In this document: piece by piece, positions 27,561 to 52,410 of the stretch
Position numbering within the stretch: position 1 is the first letter of the stretch
Layout: each line of letters opens with the position of its first letter
Assembly: GCA_951406725.2 (NCBI GenBank)
Contig: OX597827.1
Location: 64,294,001-64,358,000 of the forward strand
DNA from: Octopus vulgaris
Taxonomy: Eukaryota
Length of the DNA: 64,000 bases
Direction: 5' to 3'
The notes under the pieces: generated by a model
What the model was told of the DNA's origin: nothing
Seen by the model: the letters and a program-made list of their open reading frames with translations, nothing else
The model's database searches: none
Made by a program: the position numbers and the translations under genes

Positions 27561-27695
27561 AAGAAATTTCGAAGTGAACAAGAAATGAAATCTCATTGGC
27601 TAAATAAACACAAAAAAAATTTCATGAGAGCTATAAGCCATCCAATGTATGATACCATAATGAAGAAGGTCCTTGAATGTATTAAACTTAAAGAG
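27561..27695 (+). pseudogene. Parvovirus-like NS1 fragment (type A, diverged copy of 41963-42085)
   Basis: KKFRSEQEMKSHWLN..NFMRAISHPMYDT.MKKVLECIKLK in both copies. Confidence 0.7.
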
Positions 27696-27711
27696 ATAAG
27701 AGGCAGATAAA

Positions 27712-27800
27712 ATGGCACCCTGTTTGTGAACCTCAATCATAACAGGTACATAGGCACAGTGTACATCGGATGAACCAGATGATGATTTATTATCAAGTAA
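27712..27800 (+). pseudogene. Short piggyBac transposase fragment
   Basis: Similar to 50281-50365 (YNK.MGGVDRLNQMMSYY region). Confidence 0.55.
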
Positions 27801-28009
27801 TAAATAGTACACAAGCGTTAAGTTGTATGATACACTTGGTCTTCAACAACAGAATGGCACTTCACAATTCTTGTGAACTGACATTACAAGATGGAAATCG
27901 CCAATTTAATAATGACAGTGAGGGACTAGATTTCTTTCGCAAACAATATTATTCCCAGTACTGTAAATAACCCAACAGCAGACAGGAAATCTGCTAGCGG
28001 CAGCGTACA

Positions 28010-30762: not shown

Positions 30763-30769
30763 ACACTGC

Positions 30770-31357
30770 AGGTAGATCAATGAAATTGTTCAACTATATT
30801 AAATAGTTATCCGGACTCAAAGAATATGCACTCATTAAGATGAAGCAAGAGTGGTGCCAGAAGCAAAACAATGAAAATTTCTTAGGAGCTTTAGCTCATC
30901 CTATGTTTGATTCAATAGCCAGAAATGTGGCCGATTCATGCAAAATGGAAATACTCGCCACTAAATTCCAAAACATGAAATGGAATAAATTCCATGTTCG
31001 TGAATATCACACTGTAGCTACATCACTACGTATATTTCAAAATATATTGAAAGTACAAAACATTCTTATAGATGAATTTGTAACAGACGTATGGAATCTT
31101 CTAAATCAAAAACTTCCAAAAACAAACACTTTCGTACTTGAAGGAGTCCCAAGTAGTGGAAAATCATATATTTGTCGCAGTATTGCACAACTCTTTCAAT
31201 ATTCAGAAACAATACAAGGTACATCTCTTTCCCTTTCCAAGATATGTACCAGACCGAAATTTGCCTCTTTTAGGAACCTAACACGACGTTAGAAACGCTT
31301 CAAACCTTCATAAAGTTGGCTGAAGGAGTAGACACTGCAGTATCCGTAAAATTCAAA
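30770..31357 (+). pseudogene. NS1: Parvovirus/densovirus NS1 SF3 helicase fragment (type B)
   Basis: KLPKTNTFVLEGVPSSGKS (Walker A); after a frameshift FPFQDM..ICLF*EP (Walker B) and QTFIKLAEG. Confidence 0.8.
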
Positions 31358-31645
31358 ACCAAACTCCTTTAATGTTTGCCTGTGTAAACGGCAACAGAAG
31401 AATAATTGAGATGTTTATAGATGCAAAGACACTTCCGTGGTTGGACAGCCTTACATGATACTGTGAATAGCCATAAAACGGATGCTGTGACGCTCTTAAT
31501 ATCTCGGAGCAGCGAGGTGAATGTGAAGAACTAATAAGGCCAGACTCTCCTCCATTTGACAGTAGGGTCATGTGAGAAGGAATGGACAGATGCTGTGAAA
31601 GCATTAATGAACCATAGCGCTCTTCAGGTGAGTGCACGAGATATG
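31358..31645 (+). pseudogene. Ankyrin-repeat fragment
   Basis: Same sequence family as the 28-30.7 kb array. Confidence 0.8.
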
Positions 31646-31844
31646 AAGGCTGGGGGGGGTGCAGTTTTGGAATTGAACATGCATGCGGAGCCTGAAATAT
31701 CAGAACAATTGACTGAGAATACCAGAATGGGATATTTTTCATTTATCATTTTCGTATTTCAATTTCCATATTTATGTAATTGTGATGTTTTATGTCCCCT
31801 CTGTTTAGCCCTTTATGGGTAATAAAGACATATATATAGGCTAG

Positions 31845-33005
31845 TCTAGGTGAGTTGTTTGCTACCATGAAATCGGAAGATGCTGCATCTTTCTTGGCAG
31901 CAAAGGTTATTATACCTAGCAATAAGAAGTGTAAAAAAGGGCACCGAATGATAAATTGGTAGCGAATAATGTTTGCTGGCGGTGTAATCGCAAAGGCTGC
32001 AATCAGGAGTTGTCTGTCCGGAAGGGAACATGGCTTGAAGGCTGCACGCTCCCTCTGCAGACCGTAGTCCTTTTTTTGTACTCTTGGGTCAAGGAACTGA
32101 CTACAGTGCGTTATTGTGTAGAAGAACTGGGGATGAGCCACGGTTCAGTTGTGGATTACAACAATTATGTGCGAGAAATATGCGCGCATGACTTGCTAAT
32201 GAACCCAATTGTAATAGGTGGTCCTGGGAAGATTGTCGAGATAGACGAGAGTCTTCTCTAGGAGGAAGTTTAATCGAGGAAGGGTGTTACCTCAGCAATG
32301 GGTATACGGTGGGGTGTGTCGTGAGACCAGAAGTTTTCCTTTATGCAGTACCTTGTACAAAATTGCAAACTTTCGTTCCTTCAAATTTATTTCATTTCAA
32401 ATTACAATAGGAAACTTGATGTGCCTTTTGGGCGTAATTCCACAACCTGCAAACACTGACGCTGACAATTTCGACAGGGACACGCTGCTCAGACTGCAAA
32501 ACATGCTTCATGTGCACAACAGCTATATTCGAACTGGGGATGAGCCACAGTTCAGCTGTGGACTACAACAATTATGTGCGAGAAATATGCGCGCATGACT
32601 TGCTAATGAACCCAATTGTAATAGGTGGTCCTGGGAAGATTGTCAAGACAGTCTTCTGTAGGAGGAAGTTTAATCGAGGAAGGGTGTTTACCTCAGCAAT
32701 GGGTATTCGGTGGGGTGTGTCGTGAGACCAGAGAAGTTTTCCTTTATGCAGTACCTTGTCGGAATTGCGACACACTCGAAGAATGCATCCGTCGCTCAAT
32801 CCTCCCAGGTACCACAATATTTAGTGACCTGTGGAGGGCTTATTCACATATTCCAGAGATCGAGGGATACAATTTGACAGAATGGTGAACCACAGCATCG
32901 AGTTTGTTGACTCCGTTGATAACACACACCCAACAAATAGAGAGTACTTGGGCGTGTTTGAAATGGGGTAACAAGCGACTTTGTGGTACATATCGTTCTA
33001 TGATT
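31845..33005 (+). pseudogene. Merlin (IS1595/ISXO2-like DDE) transposase family A, duplicated and interrupted
   Basis: WRC..C..SVRKGTW, IGGPGKIVEIDES, RKFNRGR..QQWVFGG, ILPGTTIFSDLWRAY. Confidence 0.85.
32360..32532 (+). pseudogene. Helitron RepHel fragment
   Basis: FLQIYF and DRDTLLRLQNMLHVHNSYIR. Confidence 0.65.
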
Positions 33006-33010
33006 GACAT

Positions 33011-33141
33011 ATAAATATATCTTAATTGTAGTGTGAGAAAAGTATATATATTCTAGATTTTTATAAAAATATATTCTTTCAAAAACATTTTATCATCAGA
33101 ATATATATACTTTTCTCACACTACAATTAAGATATATTTAT
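33011..33141. repeat. Near-perfect ~44-bp inverted repeat (hairpin/MITE-like)
   Basis: ataaatatatcttaattgtagtgtgagaaaagtatatatattct ... agaatatatatacttttctcacactacaattaagatatatttat. Confidence 0.85.
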
Positions 33142-33326
33142 TTTAAATCGTTCATCCTTCTCCCCCCCCCCCACAACAAAAATTAGTTTGAAAGAGGGGA
33201 CAGAGAAAGTTCTAAAATCTAACCAATCAGAGCTAACTGACTTCTTACCACGATAGTGAAAATAACTTTATTAGTTATTTTCATTTTATCTTCACCAGTT
33301 GAACTGTGAGATAAAATTAAAAAATA

Positions 33327-34205
33327 ATGTTGTATGAGATAGAAAGTATCGTGAAAGACTTTGATAGTATTTATTCCTTCCTCAAGGACAAAAAGGTCTT
33401 AAGTTCCTCTTCGCCAAATTGTTCGAGATGCCAGAGAGAGATGACTGATAAAACACAATCAAGAAAAAGTATTTCGCTGCCCAACTCACAAAGGGGAAAA
33501 AGAATCAATTAGAAGGAACTCCTATCTCGAAAATAGCAGATTGAAACTACATGATTTCATACATATAATATATTGTTGGGGCAATAACCTAACAATAACA
33601 GCAACAATAGCAATGACTGGATTGTCAAAATGTACCGTTATTCAATGGTTCCAATACATGCGAGATATCTGTAGTAACAATCTGGTCAACAATCCATACC
33701 AAATTGGTGGTGTCGGAAAAGTTGTTGAAATAGATGAAAGTCTGATGTGCAAGAGGAAGTACAATAGAGGGAGAACGCCACAAGAGAGATGGGTCTTTGG
33801 AGGTTATGATAGAGAAGAGAAAAAGGCTTCCTACTCTTCGTAGCTGACCGTTCCTCGGAAACTCTGCTACCCATCATCAAAAAATATATTAGACTGGGCA
33901 CAACAATTCATTCGGATTGCTGGGCCGCCTATAATGGGATTGCAGAAATGGATGTGACACCAAAATACATCCATTTCAAAGTAAACTATTCCCAGAATTT
34001 TGTGGATCCGCTAACAGGTGTACACACAAATTCTGTGGAATGTTACTGGAAAAATGCAAAAAGAAAATTTAAAACGATGATGGGGGTACATTCCACCATG
34101 GTGGACTCGTACCTTGAGTTTCTGTGGAAGGAACAGTATGGACAAAATGAAAACGATTGTGTGATGAATATTCTGAAACATCTTTCAGAATGGTATAAAA
34201 TTTGA
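33327..34205 (+). pseudogene. Merlin transposase family B, near full length, frameshifted
   Basis: IGGVGKVVEIDES..KRKYNRGR..WVFGG; HSDCWAAY; NFVDPLTGVHTNSVECYW; upstream CCAAT box; 5' part repeated at 51482-51860. Confidence 0.85.
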
Positions 34206-34968
34206 AGGGGTATGATGTCACGCGTGTATTGAAACCATTGAAAAGAAAATTTAAAACGATGATGAGGATACATTCCACCATGGTGGACTCGTACCTTGAG
34301 TTTCTGTGGAAGGAACAGTATGGACAAAATGAAAACGATTGTGATGAATATTCTGAAACATCTTTCAGAATGGTATAAAATTTGAAGGGGTATGATGTCA
34401 CGCGTGTATTGAAACCATTGAAAAGGAAATTTAAAACGATGATGAGGATATATTCCACCATGGTGGACTCGTACCTTGAGTTTCTGTGGAAGGAACAGTA
34501 TGGACAAAATGAAAACGATTGTGTGATGAATATTCTGAAACATCTTTCAGAATGGTATAAAATTTGAAGGGGTATGATGTCACGCGTGTATTGAAACCAT
34601 TGAAAAGAAAATTTAAAACGATGATGAGGATACATTCCACCATGGTGGACTCGTACCTTGAGTTTCTGTGGAAGGAACAGTATGGACAAAATGAAAACGA
34701 TTGTGTGATGAATATTCTGAAACATCTTTCAGAATGGTATAAAATTTGAAGGGGTATGATGTCACGCGTGTATTGAAACCATTGAAAAGAAAATTTAAAA
34801 CGATGATGAGGATACATTCCACCATGGTGGACTCGTACCTTGAGTTTCTGTGGAAGGAACAGTATGGACAAAATGAAAACGATTGTGTGATGAATATTCT
34901 GAAACATCTTTCAGAATGGTATAAAATTTGAAGGGGTATGATGTCACGAGTGTATTGAAACCATTGAA
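34059..34968. repeat. Tandem repeat, 180-182-bp unit, ~5 copies, built from the Merlin 3' end
   Basis: ORF offsets 34382/34564/34746. Confidence 0.95.
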
Positions 34969-37207
34969 TAACAGAAATTAGAACGTGACATTTCTGCTAA
35001 GCTGCCGCAATTGCTTAATTAAGACTTAAATTGAAAGGTGCAAATATGTGACGAGGTTGAAAAAAAATGTATTTATCTAATTGACTATTTTGCTACACTG
35101 TCATAAAATCGCTACAATATCATGAAAAAATTAAGGTATGTACAACATATATTATTGTATACATATATACAGTATCTACAATAAGTTAGTACACACAACG
35201 ATTTTTTAAATTTTTACTTCTTAGAACTTTATTTTTTCGTAGGATTTAAATGAAACTCGATGTAAACCTAGCCATATATGTAAATTTAAATATGCATAAA
35301 CGTTAGGGTTCAAATTTGTTGTTTATTACAAATTATAGGAGAAAATCCATAGTCACAGTACAATAAATTAGTACACAGCTATGGAAGTCACTAATCATGA
35401 ATAAATATTTACTTAAATAGCTATAAATTGCAGAACTTTCTGTTGGCACCTTTTTATTGTACCCTAATAAATAACCAAAGGCATTTCATTGGCTGTTTGT
35501 TTACATTACGCTGCTATTGCTTGGATCTATTGCTACCAAAGTTTCTCTCATATTATTCTTGGAAATGGCTCCTCGTGGCAATGAATTACATGAAAAAACT
35601 CGTGAAACTATTGTTAATTTATTCAAGAGTGGTCATTCATATACGGAAATAAGTGGCAATGTAAATATCAGCCGAAATACGGTAACAAAAGTTGTTCAAC
35701 GGTACAAAAAAGCTGGAACCGTCACAAATGGCTGCCGTCCCGGTCGACCAAATAAGTTTTGTGATCGAACTAAGAGGCGCATGAAACAACTTATAGAGGG
35801 AAGCAGACGTCGGAGTGCTGCTAGCGTCGCAGAAGAAATTTCACACAGTTTAAACGTAACTGAGTGCTCAGACAGTGCGCAACATTCTCCACGAAGACGG
35901 GTTTAAAGGCTGCATGCCCCGAAGGAAGCCTCTGCTGAAAACTTCCCACAAAAAGAAGCGTTGTGAATTTGCTAATAATCATAAAGACAAAGATATGCAG
36001 TTTTGGGACAAAATCCTTTGGTCTGACGAGACGAAAATAAATCTATTCGGCTCAGATGGCGTTAAGCGTGTGTGGCGACGAAAAGGGGAGGCTTACAAGG
36101 ATAAGTGTGTCGTGCCAACTGTCAAGCATGGAGGTGGGAGCTTGATGATTTGGGGGTGTATGAGTGCCAAAGGAGATAAACGACTTGCTTTCATCGAAGG
36201 AAAAATGGATTCAAAACTATTGCCAGATATTGGAGGAAAACATGTTACCAAGTTTAACAAGTGTTGGCAGACGTGGAGTTTTCCAGCAGGATAACGACCC
36301 TAAGCACACGTCGCGGCCTACGAAGGCGTTCTTAGAAAGTAAGCGAGTGAATACCTTACCATGGCCGAGTATGTCACCTGATTTGAACCCAATAGAGCAT
36401 CTGTGGGAGCATCTAAAACGGAAAATTGCAGGGAAAAATCCGAGAAATATTAACGAAAACAAGGAGGTCATCAAATGTAAATGGAACGCAATTCCGGCAG
36501 ACACATGTCGTAAACTAGTGGAACCAATGCCTAGGAGGTTGTCTGCTGTTATTGATAACAATGGAGGCCATACAAAGTATTAAAAATAGGCTTATTTGTT
36601 TAAAGCGCTCCTGTGTACTTACTTTTTGTTACTTGTTCTAAATGTTTTTGTTTAATTATTCTACATTGAAAAGATATTTGTTCCTTCATAGTTTATAAAG
36701 TTATTAAACCACTACATGGCTATGTTCACATCGAGTTTCATTTAAATCCTACGAAAAAAATATAGTTGTAAGAAGTAAAAATTTTTTAAAAATCGTTGTG
36801 TGTACTAACTTATTGTAGATACTGTATATACACTTTTAAAAATTATTTACTTTGTTCAAAAAATATTAATATTAATTAATTTTCAAGAATTATTTAATTT
36901 ATATAATTAATTCATTAATTTTATTCTGTAAAATAGCAATTCATTTATCTGTAAATCCGCGAGGAAAGCGACTATGTAATTTTTTTGTGTAAAATTGAAA
37001 ATGTTATATACACACACACACACACAAACACATATTTTTTGTGAAATCCAACACCTTTTTGTCTTAAAAAAGCAGAAATGTATCTGAAAAAATCCGGGGG
37101 GGGGGGGTTAACGCGCATGCGCAAGTCACCTCGTTGGATCTCGAGTAGAGAACCTACGTCTGGTGCACGCGCCCGTGCAACCGGGACCACTACAATAGAC
37201 AAGTACC
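34935..37207 (-). mobile_element. Truncated Merlin-type element in the opposite orientation, hosting the Tc1 insertion
   Basis: Minus strand reads SVIQWFQYTRDI (cf. TVIQWFQYMRDI at 33632); TIR-like ccgggaccact..aagtacc ends at 37207, as in the MITEs at 58150 and 60812. Confidence 0.55.
35170..36824 (+). mobile_element. Full-length Tc1 (DD34E) transposon with IR/DR-type ends; transposase 35565-36583 has two frameshifts
   Basis: TA-CAGT..ACTG-TA ends, >100-bp TIRs with inner repeats; GRP, ILWSDETKINLFG, TVKHGGGS, FQQDNDPKH, SPDLNPIEHLW. Confidence 0.95.
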
Positions 37208-37583
37208 TGATTGACATATCTCGGCGAATTCATGAGGTGGTGCAGACACGAGAAATGTGACCTTTGGGAGGAATTGCTGGCAAACATTAGAAATTTCTCC
37301 AATTATTGTTAATCCTTTCGGTACTAGATTAGCTGAGGATTACTTGACATTTTATATCTGCTGTAATATTTGCAGCTTTAATAAATTGTTATAGTATGAA
37401 ACAATTGTACTAAATTACCGGATCTATTCTTGTTGCTTATATATATACATATATATATATATATATGTGTATATTATATATTTATATATACTTTCATCAT
37501 CGTTTGAACAAGCAGACACTTAATTTTTCTCAGATAGAAAGACATCAACCCGGAATCAAAACCCAATAATCGAATTTGAAGAC

Positions 37584-39165
37584 ATGATGTATTATACAAT
37601 CTTTGATAAAATTGAAGATGGTGACGCTGAAGGTGTGAAAACCTTAATAGAGAAGCACCCAGTTAAAATTAACCACCATGATGTAAGGGGACGAATTCCT
37701 TTAATGTATTCCCATGTAAGGGACAACACAAGAATAATTGAGATGTTTATAGATGCAAGACACCTCTGTGGTTGGACAGCTCTACGTAATGCTGTGTATA
37801 GACGTCATCTTGAAGCCGTGAAAATCTTAATATCTCGGAGCATCGAGGTGAATGTAAAGAACTAATAACTAATATGTCCAGACTCCTCTGGAAACAACAT
37901 ACATACATATAACTTGAATCTGAAGATCTTACGATCTCGGGGTAGCGACGTGAATGTGAAGAACAAATATGGCCAGACTCCTCTCCGTTTAGCAGCAGGG
38001 TCATGTAAGAAGGAATGGACAGATGCCGTGGCAGCATTAATACAACAGAATACTGTTCAGGAGAATCCACGAGATAAGAAACTCTCTGGAAACTATATAC
38101 ATATATATAACTTGAAAATGAAGATCTTACGATCTCGGAGAAGCGAGATAAATGTGAAGAACAAATATGGCCAGACTCCTCTCTGTTTGGCAGCAGGGTC
38201 ATGTAAGAGGGAATGGACAGATGTCGTGGCAGCATTAATACAACAGAGTACCGTTCAGGAGAATCCACGAGATAAGAAACTCTCTGGAAACAATGTACAT
38301 ATATATAACTTGAAAATGAAGATCTTACGATCTCGGAGCAGCGAGATAAACGTGAAGAACCAGACTCCTCTCCGTTTGGCAGCAGGGTCATGTAAGAGGG
38401 AATGGACAGATGTCGTGGCAGCATTAATACAACAGAGTACTGTTCAGGAGAATCTACGAGATAAGAAACTCTCTGGAAACAATGTACATATATATAACTT
38501 GAAAATGAAGATCTTACGATCTCGGAGCAGCGAGATAAACGTGAAGAACCAGACTCCTCTCCGTTTGGCAGCAGGGTCATGTAAGAGGGAATGGACAGAT
38601 GTCGTGGCAGCATTAATACAACAGAGTACCGTTCAGGAGAATCCACGAGATAAGAAACTCTCTGGAAACAATGTACATATAGATAACTTGAAAATGAAGA
38701 TCTTACGATCTCGGAGCAGCGAGATAAACGTGAAGAACCAGACTCCTCTCCGTTTGGCAGCAGGGTCATGTAAGAGGGAATGGACAGATGTCGTGGCAGC
38801 ATTAATACAACAGAGTACCGTTCAGGAGAATCTACGAGATAAGAAACTCTCTGGAAACAATATACATATATATAACTTGAAAATGAAGATATTACTATCT
38901 CGGGGCAGCAATGTCAACGTGAAAAACAAATATGGCCAGACACCTCTCTGTTTGGCAGCAGGGTCATGTGAGAAGGAATGGACAGATGTCGTGGCAGCAT
39001 TAATAAAACATAGCGCTGTTGAGGTGAATGCACGAGATAAGGGTCGCACACATCTATACTGTGCCTGTTCAAGTGGATACACAAACACAGTTGGCATGTT
39101 GAGTAAAATGGCATCGATGTCAATGTGGTTGACAAAGGTGGTAACACACTACTGAGGTAGTTCAG
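37584..39165 (+). pseudogene. Ankyrin-derived locus; ORF 37914-39155 consists of ~6 tandem 180-186-bp units
   Basis: NVKNKYGQTPL.LAAG repeats; shares its 5' leader with the copy at 29570. Confidence 0.8.
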
Positions 39166-39169
39166 GAGC

Positions 39170-39958
39170 GAAGGTATGATATGGTGTCTCTAATGCTGAA
39201 CCAGGATCATGAAGCTACTGTTCACCGTCCCAGGGTCTCTAGGGCCCATACCCTCAACGTTGGCACACTGAAAGGTAGGTCTGGCGAGATTGTTGAGATG
39301 CCTGAACGGAGATGTGTTGATATATGTTGCATCCAAGAAGTGAGGTGGAGAGGCTTCTGCAAGGTTCCTCACAGGCAAAGAACACAGGTATAAGATTTTC
39401 TGGTCAAGGAACACTGATGGGGCTGGGAGCATGGGTATACTTCTCGCTGAAAAATGGGTAGATAAGGTAATTGAGGCAGTTCAGGAGCGAAAGTATAATG
39501 CGGTGTGTATGATGCTGAACCAGGATCACGAAGCTACTGTCGACCGTCCCACGGTCTCTAGGGCCCATACCTCCCACACCCTCAACGTTGGCACACTGAA
39601 AGGTAGGTCTGGCGAGATTGTTGAGATGCCTGAACGGAGATGTGTTGATATATGTTGCATCCAAGAAGTGAGGTGGAGAGGCTTCAGCTAGGTTCCTCAC
39701 AGGCAAAGAACACAGGTATAAGATTTTCTGGTCAAGGAACACTGACGGGGCTGGGAGCATGGGCATACTTCTCGCTGAAAAATGGGTAGATAAGGTAATT
39801 GAGGCAGTTCAGGAGCGAAGGTATAATGCGGTGTGTATGATGCTGAACCAGGATCATGAAGCTACTGTCGACCGTCCCACGGTCTCTAGGGCCCATACCT
39901 CCCACACCCTCAACGTTGGCACACTGAAAGGTAGGTCTGGCAAGATTGTTGAGATGCC
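39170..39958 (+). pseudogene. RTE LINE endonuclease N-terminus, tandem ~328-bp repeats
   Basis: TLNVGTLKGRSGEIVEM..RR.VDICCIQEVRWRG..GILLAEKWVDKVIE. Confidence 0.85.
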
Positions 39959-40755
39959 ACAAATACGACTTCATTAAGAAAATTATGAAGAAATGCAACA
40001 GCACAGACATGGGGGACATTATAAGATTCTGCAAAAACACGCCGAAACTACAATACCAAAATAACTGGAGCAACATCTACAGAAACACTCCAAACATTAA
40101 CAATAATTACGGCCGCAGCCACAAATATTGAAACATTGAGCATGCCCATATGAGAACAAATCAGAGACAAGAAACAATTCTTCTCATATAACACAAACAA
40201 CTACCATAACGTTCAAACATCGCTGGATATATACGACGAGTGGCTACACCACCACAACATAGACGCAGAAAAATTCGGTAGACACACATTCGAAGTCTGT
40301 CATAAACTTAATCCCAAAATTAACGGCTTGCATATTACAGGAGCAAGTAACTCGGGTAAAAGCTACGTCTTAAGAAGCATCAGGAACGGATTGATGAACT
40401 GCGGCAGAATGAGATGCCAAGCCAGCGAAAATATCACGTTCGGCACGTGCATCGACAAAACATTAATATACACCGACGAAATGTGGTTCACAACAAACAA
40501 CGTTGAAGAAGCGAAATGTATTCTAGAAGGCACAGATACATACATAAGCATTAAGCATCAGGTGGAAAGAATATTAAAAAGAACTTCGTCATTATCAACT
40601 TCCATTCAAGACCCATGGCATGTTGTTCTACAGGAAGAACAAGCTCTCAAAAATAGACTTTTCATTTACGAAACAAGTCGCAGCATGCCATAGCTAAAGG
40701 ACTGGGGCAAAGTCAAACTTAACCTGTTAATGTGGTTGACCATCTGGCGAAGAAA
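39957..40755 (+). pseudogene. NS1: Parvovirus/densovirus NS1 SF3 helicase fragment (type C)
   Basis: PKINGLHITGASNSGKS (Walker A), LIYTDE (Walker B), EEAKCILEG (B'), ALKNR..KLNLLMW. Confidence 0.8.
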
Positions 40756-41930
40756 AGCTTCCAGAATTTCTACATCACTCTCTCAGAACTATTACCAAGA
40801 TTTATCTCTACTGAATTCCAGTGGTTAACACAAAACTTCTTTGCTATTTTTACCTTTTTCTTTTCTAGTTCCTGTTGTGTATGCATACATACAGATGTAT
40901 GTGGGAGTGGACACGAGTGTCAATGGCTTTTGTGAACTGCCTCATGTACCGACGGTGTACTGTCGTTTTGAACACCCAGGGAGGGCATACTGCGGATCGT
41001 CATAACTTTCAGAAAAACCGACATTTTTATGATGAAATTTTCTATGAATATGTCTTATACCATGTAGATTCCAAATATACAAAATTTTTCCAGAAAATTG
41101 TTTTAGGAGTGGTGGGGGAGGCGTTTCGGAAAATTCACCCCGTTGAGTCCACCTCAACTTTCAGGAAAATGGATATTTTTTAATGAAATTATCTACAAAT
41201 AGACCTTGGACTACATAGTTTCCGAGCATATAGGAGTTTTTTTTTTTGGGGGGGGGGGACAATTGGGGGTTATTTTTTTAGAATAGTTTCCTTCTCAAGG
41301 TTATTTTGGAACAATTAATCCATATTTGTTACATTTTCTCCACTTTGTGCATCTGTAGATTTCTATTCAAGCAACAGGCAATGATGGTAAAGGAAGCCCC
41401 CACCAGAAAACTCATGCTGAAAATAACAGCTGTCTGGTACACAAATACATGTTAAGACAACCTATCTGCTGTATATGATTTTTTCCCCTACTTTAAGTAA
41501 ATACCCAGATAAATGGTTCTTATAGAAAGGCAGAAGACACCAGAAGCAAAAATAAAATCTGGTGCAGTACAACAAAAGTAAAGAGAAAGAAATGTCTATA
41601 CAAAACTGGTTGACTGACAGGGTAGTGTGCTTTTCGAGTTGAGTGTCGGTTTTTCTGAGTTGGTGGTGATGATATTGTGAGTTATTGAAACTTTGTTATT
41701 GTTGAACGATCGCCTCTCCGCTAAATTCTTAGAATTCCTTCACCTCCCTCCTGACCGGCTTGTCTCCCTTGCCAAAAGGGCAGTGCATAGTGCAGAAATT
41801 TTATCCAATCAGGGACAAGCATTTTTTTTTATGCTGACGTGTCAATGAAGAATTCAGTGACTGGTTGATGTGGAACCGTCATTCAAATCCAAAAGTGGAA
41901 CAATGTTAACTTGGTTTAATTATTTGACAT

Positions 41931-41962
<32 letters not shown>

Positions 41963-42515
41963 AAAAAATTTAGAAGTGAGCAAGAAATGAAGTCGCACTG
42001 GCTTAACAACTAAAACTTTATGAGGGCTATAAGCCACCCAATGTACGATACAGTAATGAAGAAAGTATTAGAATGCATAAAATTAAAAACACTTGTGCCA
42101 TTTAAAGAAAAATTCGAGAGCATGAACTGGGAACTTTTTGATAATAACAAAAATGAATATATGGACAAAGATATGTCACTGAAAGTCTTCAAAAGTATTT
42201 TAATGACACAAGACATTTGCGAAGCGCTATTCGTACAAAACGTTTGGGAAACTTTAACAAAGAAAAAACCCAAAAGAAACCTTTCAGTTCTGAGAGGATT
42301 ACCAAACACCGGCAAATCCATGATAGCACACACGTCAGCACCATTCAAGGTACCAGCAGCTTTCCGTTTCAGAATCTGATAAACGTAGAAATTGGTCTAA
42401 TTGAAGAGCCAAACTTCACCCTCAAAACATTACAAACATTTAAAAAATTAGCCGAGGGAACTGATACGGAAGTGTTAGTTAAATTCAAGCAAGATCAAAT
42501 TAAACAGAACTCATA
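41963..42515 (+). pseudogene. NS1: Parvovirus/densovirus NS1 SF3 helicase fragment (type A)
   Basis: KPKRNLSVLRGLPNTGKS; FPFQNL..IGLIEEP..QTFKKLAEG; aligns by eye with type B. Confidence 0.8.
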
Positions 42516-42524
42516 AAAGTTATA

Positions 42525-43165
42525 TGTCCAGGAAAAGAAAAAAATGACTCTAGAGATGGTATACATAGCTATCAATAAATAGAATGACAGTCTATTGCAT
42601 GACATTGATAACACCCCATCAGCAGAACGGGTTCGAACACACAGGGTATTACCCAAACATACGGAAATCTACTAAATCGATCAGTTAAACTTGGAAACTA
42701 TACGCTCTAAATATAAAGCTGACATTTACGGTCCTCGACAAATCTTACATGAGTCGTTCGAGGACATATGTCGAAATTTCATCCCACAAACAGCCGAAAA
42801 AACAAAGACGACCATTTAAGGTAGGTGGTGTCTTGCATTCAGGTAGGCTGCATAAATGTGTGTGGCCTGTCGTCGAACTGGAAGCAAGGGCGCTTCCTAA
42901 ATGACGTCAGGTCACACCATTTGCAAATACGTGACATGAGCGTTACACCAGTACGTGAAGAACCAAATAAGACCCCCTCATTGACTCAGGAAGAAATAAT
43001 TTTTCTCGCATGAGGAAATAGGTACGGCACTGTGGTAGTGTAGTTTAGAACTGAAGGAACTGCTTGGAGGATGGCAGCAAGAACTGTAAAAACAGACAAA
43101 GTAATTCTTTTCCACTCATATATAGGAAGAAAAACAACCAGAATCAAGGTGGAAATATTTTGCAC
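42525..43165 (+). pseudogene. L1/Tx1-like LINE pieces (ORF1 end, ORF2 start, ORF1 internal), recurring at 47250-47700, 48547-48775 and 49247-49550
   Basis: IQVGCINV(R/C)GL resembles the APE N-terminal motif and follows the ORF1 stop; repeated blocks. Confidence 0.55.
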
Positions 43166-44300
43166 AGTTGACTGCCCTAGATGCCATTTACAATGTACAC
43201 TCCGAAAAAATACAAGCATCTTCCGATGTAGAAGGACTGTTCGCCGTCGAAGACAAAGGCCAACGCAATGTGGATATTCTATATCGCTATACAACAACAC
43301 TTTTTTTGGAGCGGAGTCAGATACCACTCTGTAAAGTCCTGTTATTTATAAATTACTTCCTTACAGACTGTTGGTCGCATGCATTAGTCATGGAAAATTT
43401 AAACATTTCATATCCAACCTCAATTGATTGGCGATCCTTCTGCTTGGAGGTTTGTCAGCATTGGGTTGAAAATTACCAGGACCAAATCGGTGGACCAGGA
43501 GTTGAAGTAGAGATCGATGAGACGGTTATTGTAAGAAGAAAGTACAATCGTGGAAGACTCCCAAAAACTATCTGGCTTTTCGGTGCGGTAGAGCGAGTAG
43601 CCAAAACAAAAGTTTTGATATCTCTTTCATCTGAGTGTGGTGAAGAGGAAAGGCGAGATGCCGCCACACTGATCCCCTTAATTACCCGATATATACGCCA
43701 AGGGTCCATAGTATATAGTGATTCTTGGAAGTGCGTCAGGGTAGGGGGGGGGAGGGAGGCTGAATGTATATAAATATCATTTCAATGCAACTTTCAATAT
43801 AATTAGAAGACTACTAGCTATAATGCCTCACACACCAAGATACCATCGCTTCTGTTTCACACTGAACAACTACAATGAGGAAGATGTACATAGAATTAAT
43901 AATTTGGACCATATACGTTACATGGTTGTGGGAAAGGAAATATCCACCACTGGAACTATACATCTTCAGGGATATATTCACACTGTTGTTAGAGTTAGCC
44001 TTAAGGCTATGAAAAAAAGGATTTCTCCGAGAGCACATGTCGAGATGGCAAAAGGATCAGAAAAACAGAATATAGATTACTGTCAGAAAGAAGGAGATTA
44101 CTTCACCAAAGGAGAGACTATTGAAGGGGAAATTTAGAAATTCCGCATCAACCACAATGAAAATTTTGTTGATCCCACAAACGCATCGGTGCACACACAG
44201 ACGATAGAGAGATTGTGGGGGTCAGTTAAGAGATCAGTTGTTTGCCCAGGGATTCGTGCCTGTTATTTAAAGCAATACCTCGCCAAGTTCCTACTTATGG
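43165..44300 (+). pseudogene. Merlin transposase family D, split by the CRESS Rep insertion
   Basis: IGGPGVEVEIDET..RRKYNRGR..WLFG..YSDSW, resumes INHNENFVDP..HTQTIERLW at ~44140. Confidence 0.85.
43823..44137 (+). CDS. rep: CRESS-DNA virus (circovirus-like) Rep, N-terminal HUH endonuclease domain only
   Basis: RCR motif I CFTLNN, motif II HLQGY, motif III YCQKEG; TATA-like tatataaa at ~43768; no helicase half. Confidence 0.85.
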   Translation: MPHTPRYHRFCFTLNNYNEEDVHRINNLDHIRYMVVGKEISTTGTIHLQGYIHTVVRVSLKAMKKRISPRAHVEMAKGSEKQNIDYCQKEGDYFTKGETIEGEI

Positions 44301-44660
44301 AAACCAAATGGACACAAACAAATATTGGAACACAATCATTTTCACATAATGTGGAAATGTAGTTCTCAACGTTGTCCATCAAATGACAGCACTTGGCAGA
44401 AAACTATCCAGGAATACTGGAAGGCTACAGGGTAAAAGCATAAGATACCAAACGCACAGCGTGTAAAATTTCCATCTGCATAAGCTAATTACTTTTGCAA
44501 ACCCCCTAGGCAATTCTTATTAACTACAACAGATGAAACAATTCAGCAACTTAATGATTGGTGTCATGAAGACTACATGGAAACCAACAGACAAACTTCA
44601 CCTAATAAACCATCAGTCTCTTTCCAACAACATTTCAGGGAAATCAATGAAGCTCTTTAA
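44300..44660 (+). pseudogene. Probable parvovirus NS1 N-terminal HUH nuclease fragment
   Basis: One frame reads EHNHFHIMW (HUH) ... NYFCKPPR (Y..K), with two stops. Confidence 0.5.
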
Positions 44661-44849
44661 CTACATAAAATATCTTTAGGGTTACACATAATTTTTTTCT
44701 CTTATTTCTTAATTTACTTTCTTTTATATAATTTGTAATATCGAACGGATAATGTAAACGTTTATCTTCATATTCTAGTCTGTATAATTTGTAACATCTT
44801 TGTTGCACATTCGAAAAATTGTTTTGTTGCTACCCACTGTTGGGTATGC

Positions 44850-45205
44850 AAGCTGCAGGCAAAAGCATGTCTGCTGAACCGATGTTAGGAGATAAAAGAC
44901 TGGACCACCTTCTACACAAGAGGAAGGAAGTACACTACTGTAGAGGTGGGGTTTACAAGTGAAGAAGAAGCAATGAGACACGCCACTATGGTCTTGAAAA
45001 CAACTAGGTGGGTACTCTTACCTACCTATTGCAGAAGACGAGCCGCGAGAGTAAGGATTGGAAAAGAGCCACCAGAAAAGAACGTATAAAGGCTGGTAGC
45101 AGCCATAATATACAATTGCAAAGATGTGGTGGAAATTCTCAAAGTAGAAAAGTCAAGAGATATCAACTGGTGGGGTTATGGTGTGAAGCCACAAGCTCCG
45201 ACGGG
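44850..45205 (+). pseudogene. LINE ORF1 fragment (paralog of the 43000 and 45756 pieces)
   Basis: RGRKYTTVEVGF..MVLKT..VLLPTY resembles GNRYGTVVV.F..TVKT..ILFHSY. Confidence 0.45.
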
Positions 45206-45209
45206 TCCC

Positions 45210-45485
45210 AGCAATCCTTCTAAAGGGGCTCTAACAAGACTACTTTAGATTCTCTTCCAGAGTCTTCCTTGCAACTGGGAGGTCTGCATATGTCATTTCT
45301 ATAATGGAGGTAGTAGAGTAATTGTTAAAAATTATAAACCTGTCTCTCTAACTTCACCTGTCAGCAAAGTCATGGAATACATTGTCAGGAAGAAACTCCT
45401 TGCATTCCTTGTAAATAATGACTTGCTCCCTGACACCCAGCATGGCTTCCGCTCAAGAAGAAGCTGCCTTACACAGCCTTTGTAA
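45210..45485 (+). pseudogene. CR1/Jockey-group RT fragment
   Basis: NYKPVSLTSPVSKVMEYIV..QHGFRSRRSCLTQ. Confidence 0.75.
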
Positions 45486-45537
45486 CATGCTTTGAGAAGA
45501 GCCATGAAAAGTCAACCTGCAACTGTGTGTAATAATC

Positions 45538-45585
45538 AGGAGAAGCCATGCCACGGTGAAATTTGTGGAAAAACTTGTTCCTTGG
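45538..45585 (+). pseudogene. Degenerate C2H2 zinc-finger remnant; similar pieces at 49637-49680 (+) and ~58700-58760 (-)
   Basis: EKPCHGEICGKT and EKPHHSEICGGT versus the consensus EKPYHCEICGKTF. Confidence 0.5.
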
Positions 45586-46374
45586 TCTGGGATGGATTTT
45601 CAATATAATCCACATAATTTCAAATCCTTTAAATACAAGCTATAAGGTCATGTCCAAAAAGTGGTGGTGAGTAAGAGAATTAATCCTTTAGCATTTAAAC
45701 AGGCTACATCTGGCCCCATCACTCGTTTTATGTTCAAGCTGGCCAAATTCAGCCAATGCCTGCAAAAAATGAAACCGTGGAAAAGTGTCTGGCGCCCATT
45801 TGGGACAAAATTGTATATACAGGAAAGAGAGTAAGAAGTGCTACAGTTGAGGTGCATTTCACAGATGCCGAAACGACAAAGCAAATATCTACGCAGACAT
45901 TGAGGAATGATGAAATAATCCGCATTCAGCTGAGAGGGACTGAGTGCTCGTGTGTCAGTAGAAGGAAGAAGACCGAGGTGTTTCAAGTGTTGGAGAGAAG
46001 GGATATGTAATGCCAGAATGTGGAAAAGTAAAAAATGGCAAAGAAGGTAGATGTTCCTCCCGCAAAAGAGAAAAAGTATGGAAACTAACAAGGAGGCGAA
46101 AAAAATGGGGGGAAAAAAAAACCTGAGAAAGAGAAAGAAAAAGGGAGTTACCGTTATGAAAGAGTGTACTTGGAGGACCAGAATGAAAGGAGTTGCAAAC
46201 AAGAACCTATATCTCTGGCACAGGCTCGCTGAATTTCTTCAGATACCATCTGAAGAGCAATATAGGGCTGAAGAGAAGACAACTGTCACAGGGGATATAC
46301 AAGAAAAGATGGAAGGATGTTGTGAGGAAGTTGGGAGTGACTGTCCCTACTTAACCCTTTCATCACTAACCCGG

Positions 46375-46795
46375 CCAAGAGAACCTATTGTTATTTAAAT
46401 GTAAAAAAACCGGCGATTGGTATCGATTAGACTATAATAATTACAAATCGCTAATTATGAAGGAACTACAAAAAAAATATAAGATCACATCTATAGAAAA
46501 CCTGAAGGATATTAACCGAAAAATAAAAGAAGTAATGACCAAACTGGATCTACTAGGTAAGACTGAACCTCTCAAACCTCAGGAGCCAAGGACTAACATC
46601 AAGGACCATAAAAAAGGACTCCCGGAAAACAGGAGTAAGACTAATATGCCCAACTAAGTCAGATATAGGAAGACTTAGCAAAACCATTCTGGACAGTTAT
46701 TCCATGGATTAAACCTCACATTCCACTCAATTTATGGATCAATACTGATGATGTTCTAGAGTGGTATAACTCCATTATTGATAGAAATGGTTGAC
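46375..46795 (+). pseudogene. Penelope-like element RT N-terminal fragment (second family)
   Basis: KC.KTGDWY..Y..LI..KYK, IKDHK and LWINTDDVLEWY match KADKT / LKDHK / QW.NT..VI.WF. Confidence 0.6.
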
Positions 46796-46799
46796 CGAC

Positions 46800-47660
46800 C
46801 TAGCAGAGCCAGAGCCTTAAAGTTACCATCCAGGCAGCACCAGAAATGCTAGAAGAAATTGTAGAGAACATCAACTTCAGTGAAGAGATCACTTTGCGAG
46901 TGGTGGTAGAGGGGCAAAAACCCCGGTGCTACAAATGGGCCACATTTGAGTGGACTGCCCCACCCGCAAAAAAGGAAGAAGGAAGCGGTGATGTGTTGAA
47001 AGGCGAAAGGATAAAGAAGGGAAAAAACAACAGGACGCCGACAGAAGAAAACGATTTCACTCCAGTGAGACAAAGAAAAACTCCTAAAAGAAGCACAAAA
47101 ACCCCAAGCACAAACAAGAAAAAAAAATACCCCACCCCACCACAAGAACCGCCCCCCCCCCCCCCTGCATCCAACTCTAGACAACCACCCCTACCCCTCA
47201 GTGCTGAACAATTTCCTCCCCACCCAGACTCCACCCTATCACCCCCACAATGTCCAGGAAAAGAAAAAAATTACTCTAGAGATGGTATACAAAGCTATCA
47301 ATAAATAGAATGACAGTCTATTGCATGACATTGATAACACCCTATCAGCGGAACGGGTTCGAACACACAGGGTATTACTCAAACATACGGAAATCTACTA
47401 AATCGATCAGTTAAACTGGGAAACTATACGCTCTAAATATAAAGCTGACATTTACGGTCCTTGACACAACTTACACGAGTCGTTGTTCGAGGACATATAT
47501 CGAAATTTCATCCCACGAACAGCCGAAAAAACAAAGACGACCATTTAAGGTAGGTGGTGTCTTGCATTCAGGCTGGCTGCATAAATGTGCGTGGCCTGTT
47601 GTCGAACTGGAAGCAAGGGCGCTTCCTAAATGACGTTAGGTCAAACCATTTGCAAATACG
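46800..47660 (+). pseudogene. L1/Tx1-like LINE ORF1 C-terminal half plus ORF2 start
   Basis: LRVVVEGQKPRCYK (eroded zinc knuckle), K/P-rich tail, then INVRGL. Confidence 0.55.
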
Positions 47661-47699
47661 TGACATGAACTTTACCAGTATGTGAAAAACCAAATTGGA

Positions 47700-48546
47700 A
47701 ATATTTTGCACAGTTGACTGCTCTAGATGCCATTTACAATGTACACTCCGAGAAAATACAAGCATCTTCTGATGTGGAAGGACTGTTCGCCGCCGAAGAC
47801 AAAGGCCAATGCAATGTGGATATTCTATATCGCTATACAACAACACTTTTTTTCGAGGGGAGTCAGATACCACCCTGTAAAGTCCTGTTATTTATAAATT
47901 CCTTATAGACTGTTGGTCGCATGCATTAGTCATGGAAAATTTAAACATTTCATATCCGACCTCGATTGATTGGCGATCCTTCTGCTTGGAGGTTTGTCAG
48001 CATTGGGTTGAAAATTACCAGGACCAAATCGGTGGACCAGGAGTTGAAGTAGAGATCGATGAGACGGTTATTGTAAGAAGAAAGTACAATCGTGGAAGAC
48101 TCCCAAAAACTATCTGGCTTTTCGGTGCGGCAGAGCGAGTAGCCCAAAAAAAAGTTTTGATACCTCTTTCATCTGAGTGTGGTGAAGAGGAAAGGCGAGA
48201 TGCCGCCACACTGATCCCCTTAATTACCAGATATATACGCCAAGGGTCCATAGTATATAGCGATTCTTGGGCTGCATATAACTCTTTTAGAAATCTCGGC
48301 TATACCCACTTCCGCATCAACCACAATGAAAATTTTGTTGATCCCACAAACGCATCGGTGCACACACAGACGATAGAGAGATTGTGGGGGTCAGTTAAGA
48401 GATCAGTTGTTCGCCCAGGGATTCGTGCCTGTTGCTTAAAGCAATACCCCGCCAAGTTCCTATTTACAGAAAGCATCAAACCTACAGCCAAGAGAATACA
48501 CGTATTCTTATTGGCAGCAGCAAGTCTTTATCCTGGCCCGAGATAA
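47700..48546 (+). pseudogene. Merlin transposase family D, uninterrupted copy (ORF 47932-48546); third partial copy at 48775-49247
   Basis: VEIDET, SDSWAAY, INH..FVDP..HTQTIERLW. Confidence 0.9.
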
Positions 48547-49794
48547 TTTCATCCCACGAACAGCCGAAAAAACAAAGATGACCATTTAAGGTAGGTGATG
48601 TCTCGCATTCAGGTAGGCTGCATAAATGTGCGTAGCCTGTCGTTGAACTGGAAGCAAGGGCACTTCCTAAATGACGTCAGGTCACAGCATTTACGTATAA
48701 GAGACCTGAGCAGTACACCCACACTCATATCTGGGAAGAATAACAACCAGAATCAAGGTGGAAATATTTTGCACAGTTGACTGCCCTAGATGCCATTTAC
48801 AATGTACACTCCACGAAAATACAAGCATCTTCTGATGTGGAAGGACTGTTCGCCGCCGAAGACAAAGGCCAACGCAATGTGGATATTCTATATCGCTATA
48901 CAACAACACTTTTTTTCGAGGGGAGTCAGATACCACCCTGTAAAATCCTGTTATTTGTAAATTACTTCCTTACAGACTGTTGGTCGCATGCATTAGTCAT
49001 GGAAAATTTAAACATTTCATATCCGACCTCGATTGATTGGCGATCCTTCTGCTTGGAGGTTTGTCAGCATTGGGGCTGAAAATTACCAGGACCAAATCGG
49101 TGGACCAGGAGTTGAAGTAGAGATTAATGAAACAGTTATTGTAAGAAGAAAGTATAATTGTGGAAGACTCCCAAAAACTATCCGGCTTTTCGGTGGGATA
49201 GAGCGAGTAGCCAAAAAAAAAAATTTTGATACCTTTCATCTGAGTGTGGGCTGCATAAATGTGCGTAGCCTGTCGTCGAACTGGAAGCAAGGGCGCTTCC
49301 TAAATGACGTCAGGTCACAGCATTTACGTATAAGAGACCTGAGCAGTACACCAGTACGTGAAGAACCAAATAACACCCCTCATTGACTCAGGAAGACAGA
49401 GGAGGAAATAGGTACGGCACTGTGGTAGTATAGCTTAGAACTGAAGAAACTGCTTGGAGGATGGCAGCAAGAACTGTAAAAACAGACAAAGTAATTCTTT
49501 CACACTCATATCTGGGAAGAAAAACAACCAGAATCAAGGTGGAAGTATTTTGTGTAATGTGATTAATGAAATGCTTGCAAATAAAAACCTTTTTCCTTTT
49601 TTAAACCTTATTCAAAGTGAATATGAGGTCGGCCTGAGAGAAACCACACCACAGTGAAATTTGTGGAGGAACTTTAACCTTAGTTCAAAAAGACTTTCAA
49701 AAATGGTCCCAAAGTATGGGAGTCAAATAATGAAACAAGGAGTTCAGTACTCTAATAAGAAATTTATACGTGTATGTATTTATTACACATGCAT

Positions 49795-50780
49795 ATAGAA
49801 TGATGGTGGGCTATAAAGGCCGGGTACGTTTCTGACAGTATATGCCCCGAAAGCCCACAAAATGGGGGATCAAAGTTTGGAAGATTTGCGAATCAAATAC
49901 TGGGTGCTGCTCAGGATTCGAATTTTATACAGGCAAAAGAGACAATCATGTAAGTCAGCATGGCCTAGGGTACGATGTGGTCCGGAATTTATCACTTCCA
50001 TACCATAACCAGGGCCGTATATTATTTTATTGACAGATTTTTCAGTTCGATCAAACTTGCAGAGAATTTAGATACTGTGGCAACACATACATGTGCTACA
50101 GTGATCGCTAGTAGAAAAGGACTGCCGTTGGATATAAAAAAAAAGGTGAAATGGCTTCTGCATATCCAAGTCTAAAAGGAATTAATCACCGCGATATTGC
50201 CATCAACGGCAGAAAGGAAATTTGCTAGCGACCGCGATCAATTGTCTGTCTACCTGTGCACGGCCACATGTGGATGAAAATGGCACGCCGTTTGTGAACC
50301 TTAATTATAACAAGTAGATGGGTGGAGTAGATCGGCTGAATCAGATGATGTCTTACTATCCAGTTGGCAGACCGGGGAATAAATGGTCATGATAACTGGT
50401 TTGGTATATAGTAAACATGAGTATTACTAATGTGTTTATACTATATGCCAAATCAGGACCGGCTCGGAAGCGATGCGACCATCTACAGTTCCGAGCAGAT
50501 GTAGTAACGCAACTAAGAGCTGGTTATTCCTAAAAAAAAAAAATAACCGTAGGGAGAAAAAGCAATGCCTGCCAGAGGGATATCCTTCTGAATTCAGCCG
50601 ATCTCCATAAATTAGAAAAAAATGGAGGGTCGCAAAAGGCAGTGTCGTGAATGCCTTCATCAAACAAGGAAAGCTCCTAGTGGAAGGGCTGTTGAAACAA
50701 CTTTCCAATGTGCATTCTGCAAGGTTGCATTATGTAGAGCAGGGTGCTTAACAAATTTTCACGATATGAATATTGTTTGA
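49795..50780 (+). pseudogene. piggyBac transposase (catalytic core plus C-terminal Cys-rich domain), degenerate
   Basis: QYMPRKPTKWGIKVW, FYTGK, DRFFSS, MGGVDRLNQM, C..C...TTFQCAFCKVALC. Confidence 0.85.
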
Positions 50781-51058
50781 TTTGTATATATGTGTGATTT
50801 GATTTTATAAATATTTTCAAAATTACTTCGTTTTTCTTTTTCTTTGTGTAATTTTAATTATAAATAAATATATTCTTGCATTATTTATTCATTATTGTTG
50901 TTTTTAAAAAAGAAATCAAACCAAATCTGCACAAATGACCACCACCGCGATCACATCCACCAATCAGCATGACCACTGACCACCACCGAAACCGCGCGTA
51001 ATTCAAAGTTTGAATGTTCTTCACTTTGATATCAACACGTGCGAAAAAATTTTCAATA

Positions 51059-51482
51059 TGGCTTCTGCATATCCAAGTCTAAAAGGAATTAATCACCGCG
51101 ATATTGCCATCGCCACGGCGATGTGATACCAGAAGATATTTTTTAGTGGCAGTGGAAGATCGGACAGCCGACACCCTTTTACAAATTATACAAGAGCATA
51201 TATTGCCTTGTACAACCATAATTTCCGACCTTTGGCGTTCGTATAACACGCTCAATCAGCTAGGATACAGGCATTTGACCTTGAATCATTCAATAAATTT
51301 TGTTGATCCGGTAAGATTTGCCACAACCCACCATATAGAATGTTTATGGAAGCATGTGAAGAATCGCAACAAAAGAGAAAATGGAACAGCCCGAAATTTA
51401 CTTCAGACCCATCTCATCGAATTCATGTGGCGTTATGAATTTAAGGACGAAATATTCGGAAAGTTATTGGAGCAAATTCGAC
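51059..51482 (+). pseudogene. Merlin transposase family E (start fused to C-terminal half)
   Basis: FLVAVEDRTADTL..ILP.TTIISDLWRSY..LNHSINFVDP..IECLW..EFMWR. Confidence 0.85.
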
Positions 51483-51862
51483 AGTTTGAAAGAGGGGACA
51501 GAGAGAGAGTTCTAAAATCTAACCAATCAGAGCTAACTGACTTCTTACCATGTGCTCTTGTATACTTTATTTTCACCAGATGAACTGTGAGATAAAATTA
51601 ATTACGTCTGTTAAATATTATTAAATATGTTATATGAGATAGAAAGTATCGTCAAAGACTTCGATACCATATATTCCTTCCTAAAGGAGAAAAATTTTGA
51701 GCAGCGTTTCTCCGCTTTGTGCAAAATGCCAGAGAGAAATGACTGATAAAACATAAAGAAAAGATATTTCGGTGCCCAACACACAAAGGGGAAAAAGTAT
51801 CAATTAGGAAGAAATCCTATCTTGAAAATAGTAAATTGAAATTACATAACTTTATGCACTTC
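51482..51862 (+). pseudogene. Merlin family B upstream region and 5' coding end (diverged copy of 33185-33560)
   Basis: Shared agtttgaaagaggggacagag..ctaaccaatcagagc and MLYEIESIVKDFD. Confidence 0.8.
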
Positions 51863-51933: not shown

Positions 51934-52003
51934 TGAGAGAGGAGAGAGAGGAGAGAGGAGAGAGAGGAGAGAGAGAGAGGGGAGAGAGAGGAGAGAGAGA
52001 GAG

Positions 52004-52083
<80 letters not shown>

Positions 52084-52140
52084 GAGAGAGAGGAGAGAGA
52101 GAGAGAGAGAGAAAGTGTGTGTGTGTGTGTGTGTGTGTGC
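51934..52140. repeat. (GA)n-(GT)n microsatellite
   Basis: Direct reading. Confidence 0.95.
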
Positions 52141-52184
52141 ACATATGTATGGGTATATAACACGCATGCATGGAACTTACGGGC

Positions 52185-52410
52185 GTTGAATTGCTTAATT
52201 ACCTCGTAACTTCTACGGATTAAAAATAAAATATTTGTGCTACGCATTCGACACTTTAGCTCCGTCAGAAGAAAAAGAGGCTTTCAAACAAAGATATATT
52301 AGATACAAGTTACCGAATCCAGCATACTTTCTTGTAAAAATCTAAACTTAAGCTCAACCCAGCCATATGGGAAATACTTTTTGATAATCATGCTACTGAA
52401 TTACAAATTG
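52185..52410 (+). pseudogene. Probable NS1 helicase C-terminal fragment
   Basis: LITS, EEKEAFKQRYIRY and KLNPAIWEIL parallel EEQALKNRLFIY..KLNLLMW of type C. Confidence 0.5.

Follow-up and report, generated by a model that had tools for sequence, protein, structure and literature searches.

Co-oriented transposon, virus-like and host-gene fragments fused in one locus of Octopus vulgaris, with probable traces of break repair at their joints

The window analysed here, a stretch of 64,000 nucleotides of the Octopus vulgaris genome (assembly GCA_951406725.2, contig OX597827.1, positions 64,294,001 to 64,358,000 of the forward strand; positions below are counted from its first letter), holds at 27020-55210 a chain of transposon, virus-like and host-gene pieces fused without spacers, with the coding strand on plus. 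This patchwork is wider than the interval 31350-51500, for which the original prediction had described end-less fragments joined at few-base overlaps. It is moderately probable, in our judgement, that the patchwork was built by repeated end-joining, a break repair of the polymerase theta type, within a likely long antisense transcript, with ordinary transposition contributing as well and local duplications and deletions following later. Breaks would be patched with any template at hand, i.e. resident DNA, viral DNA and, at least once, complementary DNA (cDNA) or a retrocopy, and inserts facing against the transcript would be retained. The transcript would extend along the minus strand from near 59 kb and make PIWI-interacting RNAs (piRNAs).

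Probable traces of templated repair at the joints

The circovirus-like Rep piece at 43729-44140 demonstrably entered here, at a break and with copying from the target, because a sister copy of the interrupted Merlin D element (47708-48549) displays the empty site, with 39 bases of Merlin D swapped out and no target-site duplication (TSD), and because the end of the insert matches the deleted stretch. No TSD of 4-14 bases has been detected at the insert. Its last eight bases, together with the base at which Merlin D resumes, form a 9-base match to the deleted target bases. This 9-base variant is present in the local sister Merlin D and in none of 30 dispersed copies, and only one of 390 alternative end points matches the deleted target equally well. 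A 54-base patch within a piggyBac piece (50151-50204) is identical to 51058-51111, 900 bases away; it is bounded by overlaps of two and one bases, and a few target bases have been lost. Target deletion is assessable at these two inserts only, as their empty sites are known. Additionally, the donor resumes upstream of its own stop point twice, forming A-B-A back-jumps at 27705-28023 and 31839-33008.

Short fillers of 5-20 bases have been identified at five of the 27 joints scored. Taken jointly, they match nearby sequence better than random fillers (sum p 0.014), two of them individually at p about 0.04, and those at 27799 and 51120 are snap-back inverted repeats of the adjoining sequence. The number of fillers also exceeds the null expectation without divergence (p 0.0003) and with half divergence (p 0.0007). 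At a joint of the ankyrin array (28633-28650 and 29880-29897) there is likewise a filler, whose source lies about 200 bases upstream.

The joints scored were those with both sides identified, as chosen by the analyst; excluded were TSD joints, the ankyrin–RTE joint and any joint whose partner on one side was unidentified. In the null models the same donors were re-joined at randomly drawn positions, with 3000 rounds for each of three levels of added divergence (none, half and full). At the 11 joints of local duplication, deletion or patching, the mean overlap is 2.09 bases against 1.07, 0.97 and 0.83 in the respective nulls (p 0.012, 0.009 and 0.005). The 16 donor-to-donor joints give a mean exact overlap of 1.31 against 1.05, 0.89 and 0.70 (p 0.22, 0.11 and 0.025), and all 27 joints pooled lie above the null (p 0.005-0.019). 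A first version of this comparison, with 25 joints and the laxest null only, had returned p 0.0095 and 0.007; its deep anchor had misregistered the joint at 45189, and the comparison was then repeated with two joints added and under all three nulls. Microhomology in excess of random expectation is established for local remodelling, not for capture, since the outcome at donor-to-donor joints depends on the null.

Several of these results weigh against the proposed repair history. Seven of the 16 donor-to-donor joints have no overlap at all, and the overlap at such joints stays within chance under the unmutated and half-mutated nulls, with p 0.025 under the laxest alone. Three of the five fillers are not individually significant, and filler number is not in excess under full divergence (p 0.26). 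Moreover, the donors diverge by 3-25% from the stretch, so they may not be the actual templates. The fillers are better evidence for end-joining than the overlaps. Capture by end-joining or template switching, as originally suggested, is supported by the Rep insert, the 54-base patch, the snap-back fillers and the back-jumps, but overlap at donor-to-donor joints is not clearly above chance.

Five joints quoted in the original prediction have been re-read against aligned genomic donor copies. The RTE–ankyrin overlap at about 39473 is confirmed (4-5 exact bases, or 9 with one mismatch); this joint closes a 328-base tandem duplication and so is not a capture joint. The overlap AG between Merlin E and Merlin B at 51483 also stands. 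The overlap between Helitron and Merlin A at 32531, given as GAA, shrinks to a single G, as the Helitron donors read on as CAG, and that between Merlin D and a long interspersed nuclear element (LINE) at 49248 amounts to one exact base (four with one mismatch) at a duplication joint. The internal deletion at 48720, said to share CCAC, is blunt (0 bases). GAA and CCAC are ruled out as overlaps by donor sequence. Thus, two of the five joints are as stated, and three (39473, 49248 and 48720) are later duplication or deletion joints rather than captures. The dense, spacer-free patchwork itself is borne out, but the evidence from the quoted joints is weaker than had been claimed, and several pieces are insertions with target duplications.

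Composition, orientation and transposition footprints

About 75% of 31350-51500 aligns to donor loci retrieved from the genome, a figure to which Tc1 and most viral pieces do not contribute, as no donor was retrieved for them. The donors come from searches of the same assembly, with up to 40 candidates scored per query; the genome search gave no donor for the Rep piece or for 44307-44799. For the 24 pieces that could be delimited, lengths run from 58 to 1879 bases, with the median at 379. Families recur within the patchwork: five piggyBac pieces, several Merlin families and four parvovirus-like pieces. Pfam supports the assignments to IS1595/Merlin, Tc1, piggyBac, reverse transcriptase (RT), Parvo_NS1, Viral_Rep and ankyrin. 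The pieces called RTE, Helitron, Penelope-like and LINE open reading frame (ORF) 1 are recognised from the donor translations; Merlin A-G, L295 and the like are working labels. The features are listed below (TIR, terminal inverted repeat; SF3, superfamily 3).

27020-55210, plus: co-oriented patchwork of transposon, virus-like and host pieces, coding strand plus
27705-28023, plus: back-jump, with a Merlin D piece following one piggyBac piece and preceding another from further upstream in piggyBac; filler of 9 bases (27799-27807), largely an inverted copy of 27785-27792
28009-31649, plus: spliced ankyrin-gene pieces, tandemly amplified, interrupted near 30.8-31.3 kb by an SF3-helicase (parvovirus-like) piece
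31839-33008, plus: Merlin A, in which a stretch of about 240 bases occurs twice, on either side of a Helitron coding piece (32356-32531); 1-base overlap at each joint
33009-37207, plus: Merlin B within Merlin A, right TIR intact, left arm gone, 182-base array (five units) inside; target duplication 33001-33008 / 37208-37215
35170-36824, plus: Tc1 with both TIRs, at TA inside Merlin B
37328-39204, plus: host-derived block, a 5' part followed by ankyrin exons without introns (189-base array of six units inside), stopping at a paralogue exon end
39202-39957, plus: RTE 5' coding piece in frame with the ankyrin piece, 328-base unit repeated 2.5 times; duplication joint 39472-39476
39959-40747, plus: broken NS1 fragment, parvovirus-like, with one relative (75%) on C19
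41960-42520, plus: second parvovirus-like NS1 fragment, broken
42524-43728, plus: LINE, piggyBac and L295-family pieces with Merlin D, a chimera found again at 47250-49552 with later deletions
43729-44140, plus: circovirus-like Rep fragment in place of 39 bases of Merlin D, no TSD
44800-47651, plus: run of LINE ORF1, CR1 RT, a TTAA-bounded stub, LINE, piggyBac 5' end at TTAA (46348-46405), Penelope-like piece and LINE
47708-48549, plus: sister copy of Merlin D without the Rep insert, an internal control for the state before insertion
49803-50859, plus: piggyBac 3' half with the 54-base patch 50151-50204 (identical to 51058-51111)
50858-51858, plus: Merlin E (internal deletion, snap-back filler 51120-51124), joined at AG to a Merlin B-like piece starting upstream of a CCAAT-like box
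54355-54809, plus: Merlin-like element lying within Merlin F, with both TIRs and flanked by a TSD of 9 bases (54346-54354 / 54810-54818)
59050-59080, minus: right edge of continuous cover by run X1, with a minus-strand 3' splice-site motif; A-rich tract on plus

The orientation of the pieces is uniform. All 12 distinct Pfam-annotated pieces lie on the plus strand (54 frames examined), and none of 21 minus-strand frames has a Pfam match, which together gives p 0.0005; the minus-frame set left out 27001-30700, 36701-39000, 48001-49000 and 52001-52100. Recognisable ORFs of the other donors are also on the plus strand of the patchwork. In a control region of 143 kb, 12 plus matches stand against 10 minus. 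A tblastn count of 50 plus matches out of 50 in the stretch is partly circular, as the sense of the library was set from the stretch, and it has been used for control regions only. Just outside the patchwork, at 20656-23600, a CR1-like LINE lies on the minus strand, opposite to all inside pieces.

Part of the patchwork bears the marks of ordinary transposition. Merlin B is flanked by TGATTGAC at 33001-33008 and 37208-37215 (8 bases, or 12 if ATAT is counted), and two terminal stubs start at TTAA, at 46348 (piggyBac 5' end) and 45680. The three cut-and-paste insertions with TSDs (Merlin B, Tc1 and the Merlin at 54355, which lies just beyond 31350-51500) face plus in 3/3 cases. Hence, the view that TIRs, TSDs and tails are lacking apart from Tc1 and one Merlin end holds for the tails, as a poly(A) tail was seen at 0/13 piece ends checked, but not for Merlin B, the 54355 Merlin and the TTAA stubs. 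Merlin B starts at a hairpin (33011-33141), and a relative on C9 (L236) has two inverted arms, which suggests a fold-back family apt to lose one arm.

These footprints bring forward the reading of ordinary nested transposition, with the ends later deleted as in fly clusters and the joints left as deletion scars. It can draw on the three elements that keep TSDs, the two stubs starting at TTAA, the lost arm of Merlin B, the frequency of local deletions and duplications, and the donor-to-donor overlap near chance. We nevertheless consider it unlikely. The sister copy of the Rep site shows a loss of only 39 bases; the 54-base patch and the out-of-order piggyBac pieces require templated copying; a Helitron piece between duplicates of about 240 bases is not what transposition leaves behind; and viral and host pieces do not transpose. 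Insertion with TSDs is true of three elements, but not of the Rep insert.

Several further observations concern the surroundings. At C19:23958000-23977800 (L243/L244) a parvovirus-like NS1 piece lies amid LINE ORF1 and Helitron matches, 8/8 on the same strand (probably 2-4 elements), and this is possibly a second locus of such kind. Three related stretches, at 45540-45576 and 49640-49680 (plus) and near 58.7 kb (minus), resemble decayed zinc-finger linkers, and the last could be the relic of a host gene; no Pfam match was obtained in 18 frames for these relics and a possible host exon. A 212-base unit is repeated 3.9 times with 99% identity at 14172-14997. Palindromic elements, similar to miniature inverted-repeat transposable elements, are located at 58150-58237 (with Merlin-type ends), 60800-61046 and 62646-63201.

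Ankyrin pieces and RNA as a possible template

The ankyrin piece crosses three paralogue exon joints gaplessly (3/3 aligned), where the paralogue has introns of 1118, 3042 and 962 bases. The absence of donor introns, proposed originally as a check, is found in the sole piece with a donor intron known. Because the three introns are missing, the ankyrin pieces have an RNA step in their history, and RNA contributed at least once. This step may predate the capture, because no intron-bearing parent above 78% identity was found in the genome search and a processed 5' copy on C1 is 94.5% alike. The 5' part of the host block (37328-39204) is 86-94.5% like C1:172.16 Mb, where a processed 5' stub of the ankyrin gene (172160.4-172160.9 kb, L190) is truncated by a short interspersed nuclear element; no further ankyrin exon was found within about 143 kb around this copy. 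Many copies of the host ankyrin family are held at 28009-31649 and 37584-39204, and many family members, 70-78% alike, lie on C31.

At 39161-39476 the spliced ankyrin exon stops exactly where the paralogue exon does, and the reading frame continues into RTE at a site resembling an acceptor; this may reflect an RTE exonised in the source messenger RNA (mRNA). All 25 RTE copies examined differ from the stretch by two bases just after the putative splice, and the next ankyrin exon after this joint was not identified.

A reverse transcriptase jumping between transposon, viral and host RNAs, or cDNA patching breaks, might itself set the orientation of the pieces. In favour of such a route, the ankyrin pieces are spliced at three exon joints and end at an exon end beside the acceptor-like RTE site, most pieces are coding, and A-B-A back-jumps occur at 27705-28023 and 31839-33008. 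Capture of cDNA with overlaps of 1-5 bases is documented for mouse zygotes (PMC4516963). Against it, TSD-bearing Merlin B, Tc1 and the 54355 Merlin share the orientation, and the Rep and Merlin E pieces begin upstream of their start codons with promoter-like boxes: Rep 94 bases before its ATG, with a G-rich and a TATA-like box, and Merlin E 214 bases before its ATG, the transcription starts of both being placed by motifs. Furthermore, the Rep filler is copied from deleted target DNA, the processed C1 copy could be a DNA intermediate, and the ankyrin–RTE splice is unproven, two bases off in all RTE copies compared. This route is regarded as quite unlikely.

With the TSD-bearing elements, TTAA-bounded termini and starts upstream of start codons, the pieces are neither confined to transcribed sequence nor free of transposition footprints. 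The suggestion that RNA templating explains the common coding orientation is contradicted, because this orientation is shared by promoter-bearing pieces and by insertions of the cut-and-paste type; copying of mRNA fails to account for it.

Proposed antisense transcription and relation to known systems

The stretch is present, whole or in part, in 20 runs from 7 studies. Contigs of run X1 (guessed to be RNA; 55 Mb of contigs), up to 3.5 kb long, cover 39960-47129 and 52140-59050. Two large runs have hundred-fold repeat peaks at 41-47 kb, which are missing from X1; past 59.05 kb, the X1 contigs listed are all short and of low depth. Runs X5, X9 and X16 cover 52-59 kb in patches. The edge at 59050 coincides with a minus-strand splice-acceptor motif, and the contigs carry no strand information. 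As a point on the other side, repeats were masked in the comparison, so the A-rich tract on plus at this edge could be a masked stretch or an oligo-dT priming site.

The observed/expected ratio of CpG is 0.29-0.97 at 24-60 kb versus 0.80-1.08 at 2-24 kb and 1.08-1.46 at 60-68 kb, and the depleted domain extends about 3 kb to the left of the first fragment. CpG depletion is expected of a methylated transcribed unit, and the CpG-rich 60-68 kb is a possible promoter region. A long minus-strand transcript, running from near 59 kb and antisense to the pieces, is likely; with its strand inferred from these signals, it is a candidate piRNA precursor. The locus is predicted by its layout to work like a uni-strand piRNA cluster, and retention of antisense inserts would be the simplest reading of the single orientation.

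The same contigs bear on the integrity of the assembly, as a region rich in near-identical local repeats might be a chimeric contig. One X1 contig spans 44213-47129 with three differences, and contigs of X10, X15 and X18 bridge other joints. With many joints bridged by four public runs, an artefact is refuted for 39960-47129 and 52140-59050, and for the patchwork as a whole it deserves almost no credence. The region 39960-47240 was found in runs under four organism labels; X10 and X18 share several NS1 substitutions, and relative to the assembly 11 bases are deleted at 42106 in four runs alike.

The proposed history by break repair can be set beside known systems. Class 2 templated sequence insertions (PMC5110952) and the filling of mouse-zygote breaks with captured retrotransposon, genomic or cDNA pieces (PMC4516963) share truncation at both ends, absence of TSD and poly(A), small target deletions, short overlaps or fillers, occasional spliced cDNA and several pieces inserted together. 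Absence of TSD and poly(A) with a small target deletion characterizes the Rep insert; the former is untrue of Merlin B, Tc1 and the 54355 Merlin. Those events are scattered or induced single ones, whereas here the pieces are piled up in one orientation at one locus and include DNA-virus pieces. End joining of the synthesis-dependent, microhomology-mediated kind (SD-MMEJ), i.e. polymerase theta end joining (PMC2943611), likewise mixes blunt, short-overlap and filler joints, and its fillers build inverted or direct repeats together with neighbouring sequence; in contrast, the present joints are old and mutated, only some of them fit, and the role of polymerase theta is putative. The distinct acquisition mechanism suggested originally is not needed, as class 2 insertion and SD-MMEJ are already known repair routes.

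Uni-strand antisense piRNA clusters of the slug Arion (PMC11615739), flamenco-like loci (PMC10643416) and antisense insertions in 3' untranslated regions (UTRs) (PMC13226689) also carry dense one-strand transposon fragments in a long transcribed unit. The content differs: here it comprises DNA transposons, LINEs, single-stranded DNA virus and host pieces rather than mainly Gypsy, and the piRNA output is a candidate one. The unidirectional piRNA clusters of Aedes aegypti (10.1101/127498) hold viral pieces of several families among co-oriented transposon fragments; theirs are RNA viruses beside long terminal repeat (LTR) elements, with template switching proposed, whereas here DNA viruses occur, a DNA-repair filler marks one viral joint and no LTR partner was found. 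In flies, piRNA immunity needs no more than antisense inserts in the 3' UTR of a host gene (PMC13226689); piRNA clusters enriched in DNA transposons occur in molluscs (PMC6128900), and unidirectional clusters are described from slugs (PMC12506671). Each ingredient is known, both the repair chemistry and the kind of locus, and the combination was not found in the literature: the search returned no paper joining a uni-strand cluster with junction repair chemistry, and none among the papers listed dealt, by title and opening of the abstract, with the chemistry of cluster joints, most subscription journals being outside its coverage.

A more far-reaching scheme would be an actively fed, CRISPR-like memory, in which transposon or virus templates are preferred for patching breaks in the transcribed precursor. 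Pairing to the antisense transcript would then fix the orientation at capture, instead of selection acting afterwards, and would recruit more of the stored families. It is considered very improbable.

The piRNA cluster is usually pictured as a trap for whole jumping transposons, whereas the pieces here are short. Patching of breaks would offer DNA viruses and host genes, which are unable to jump, a route into an antisense archive in a mollusc, and antisense RNA from the ankyrin copies could act on host genes. How clusters acquire sequence would thereby become a matter of counting junctions, in other clusters and in related species.

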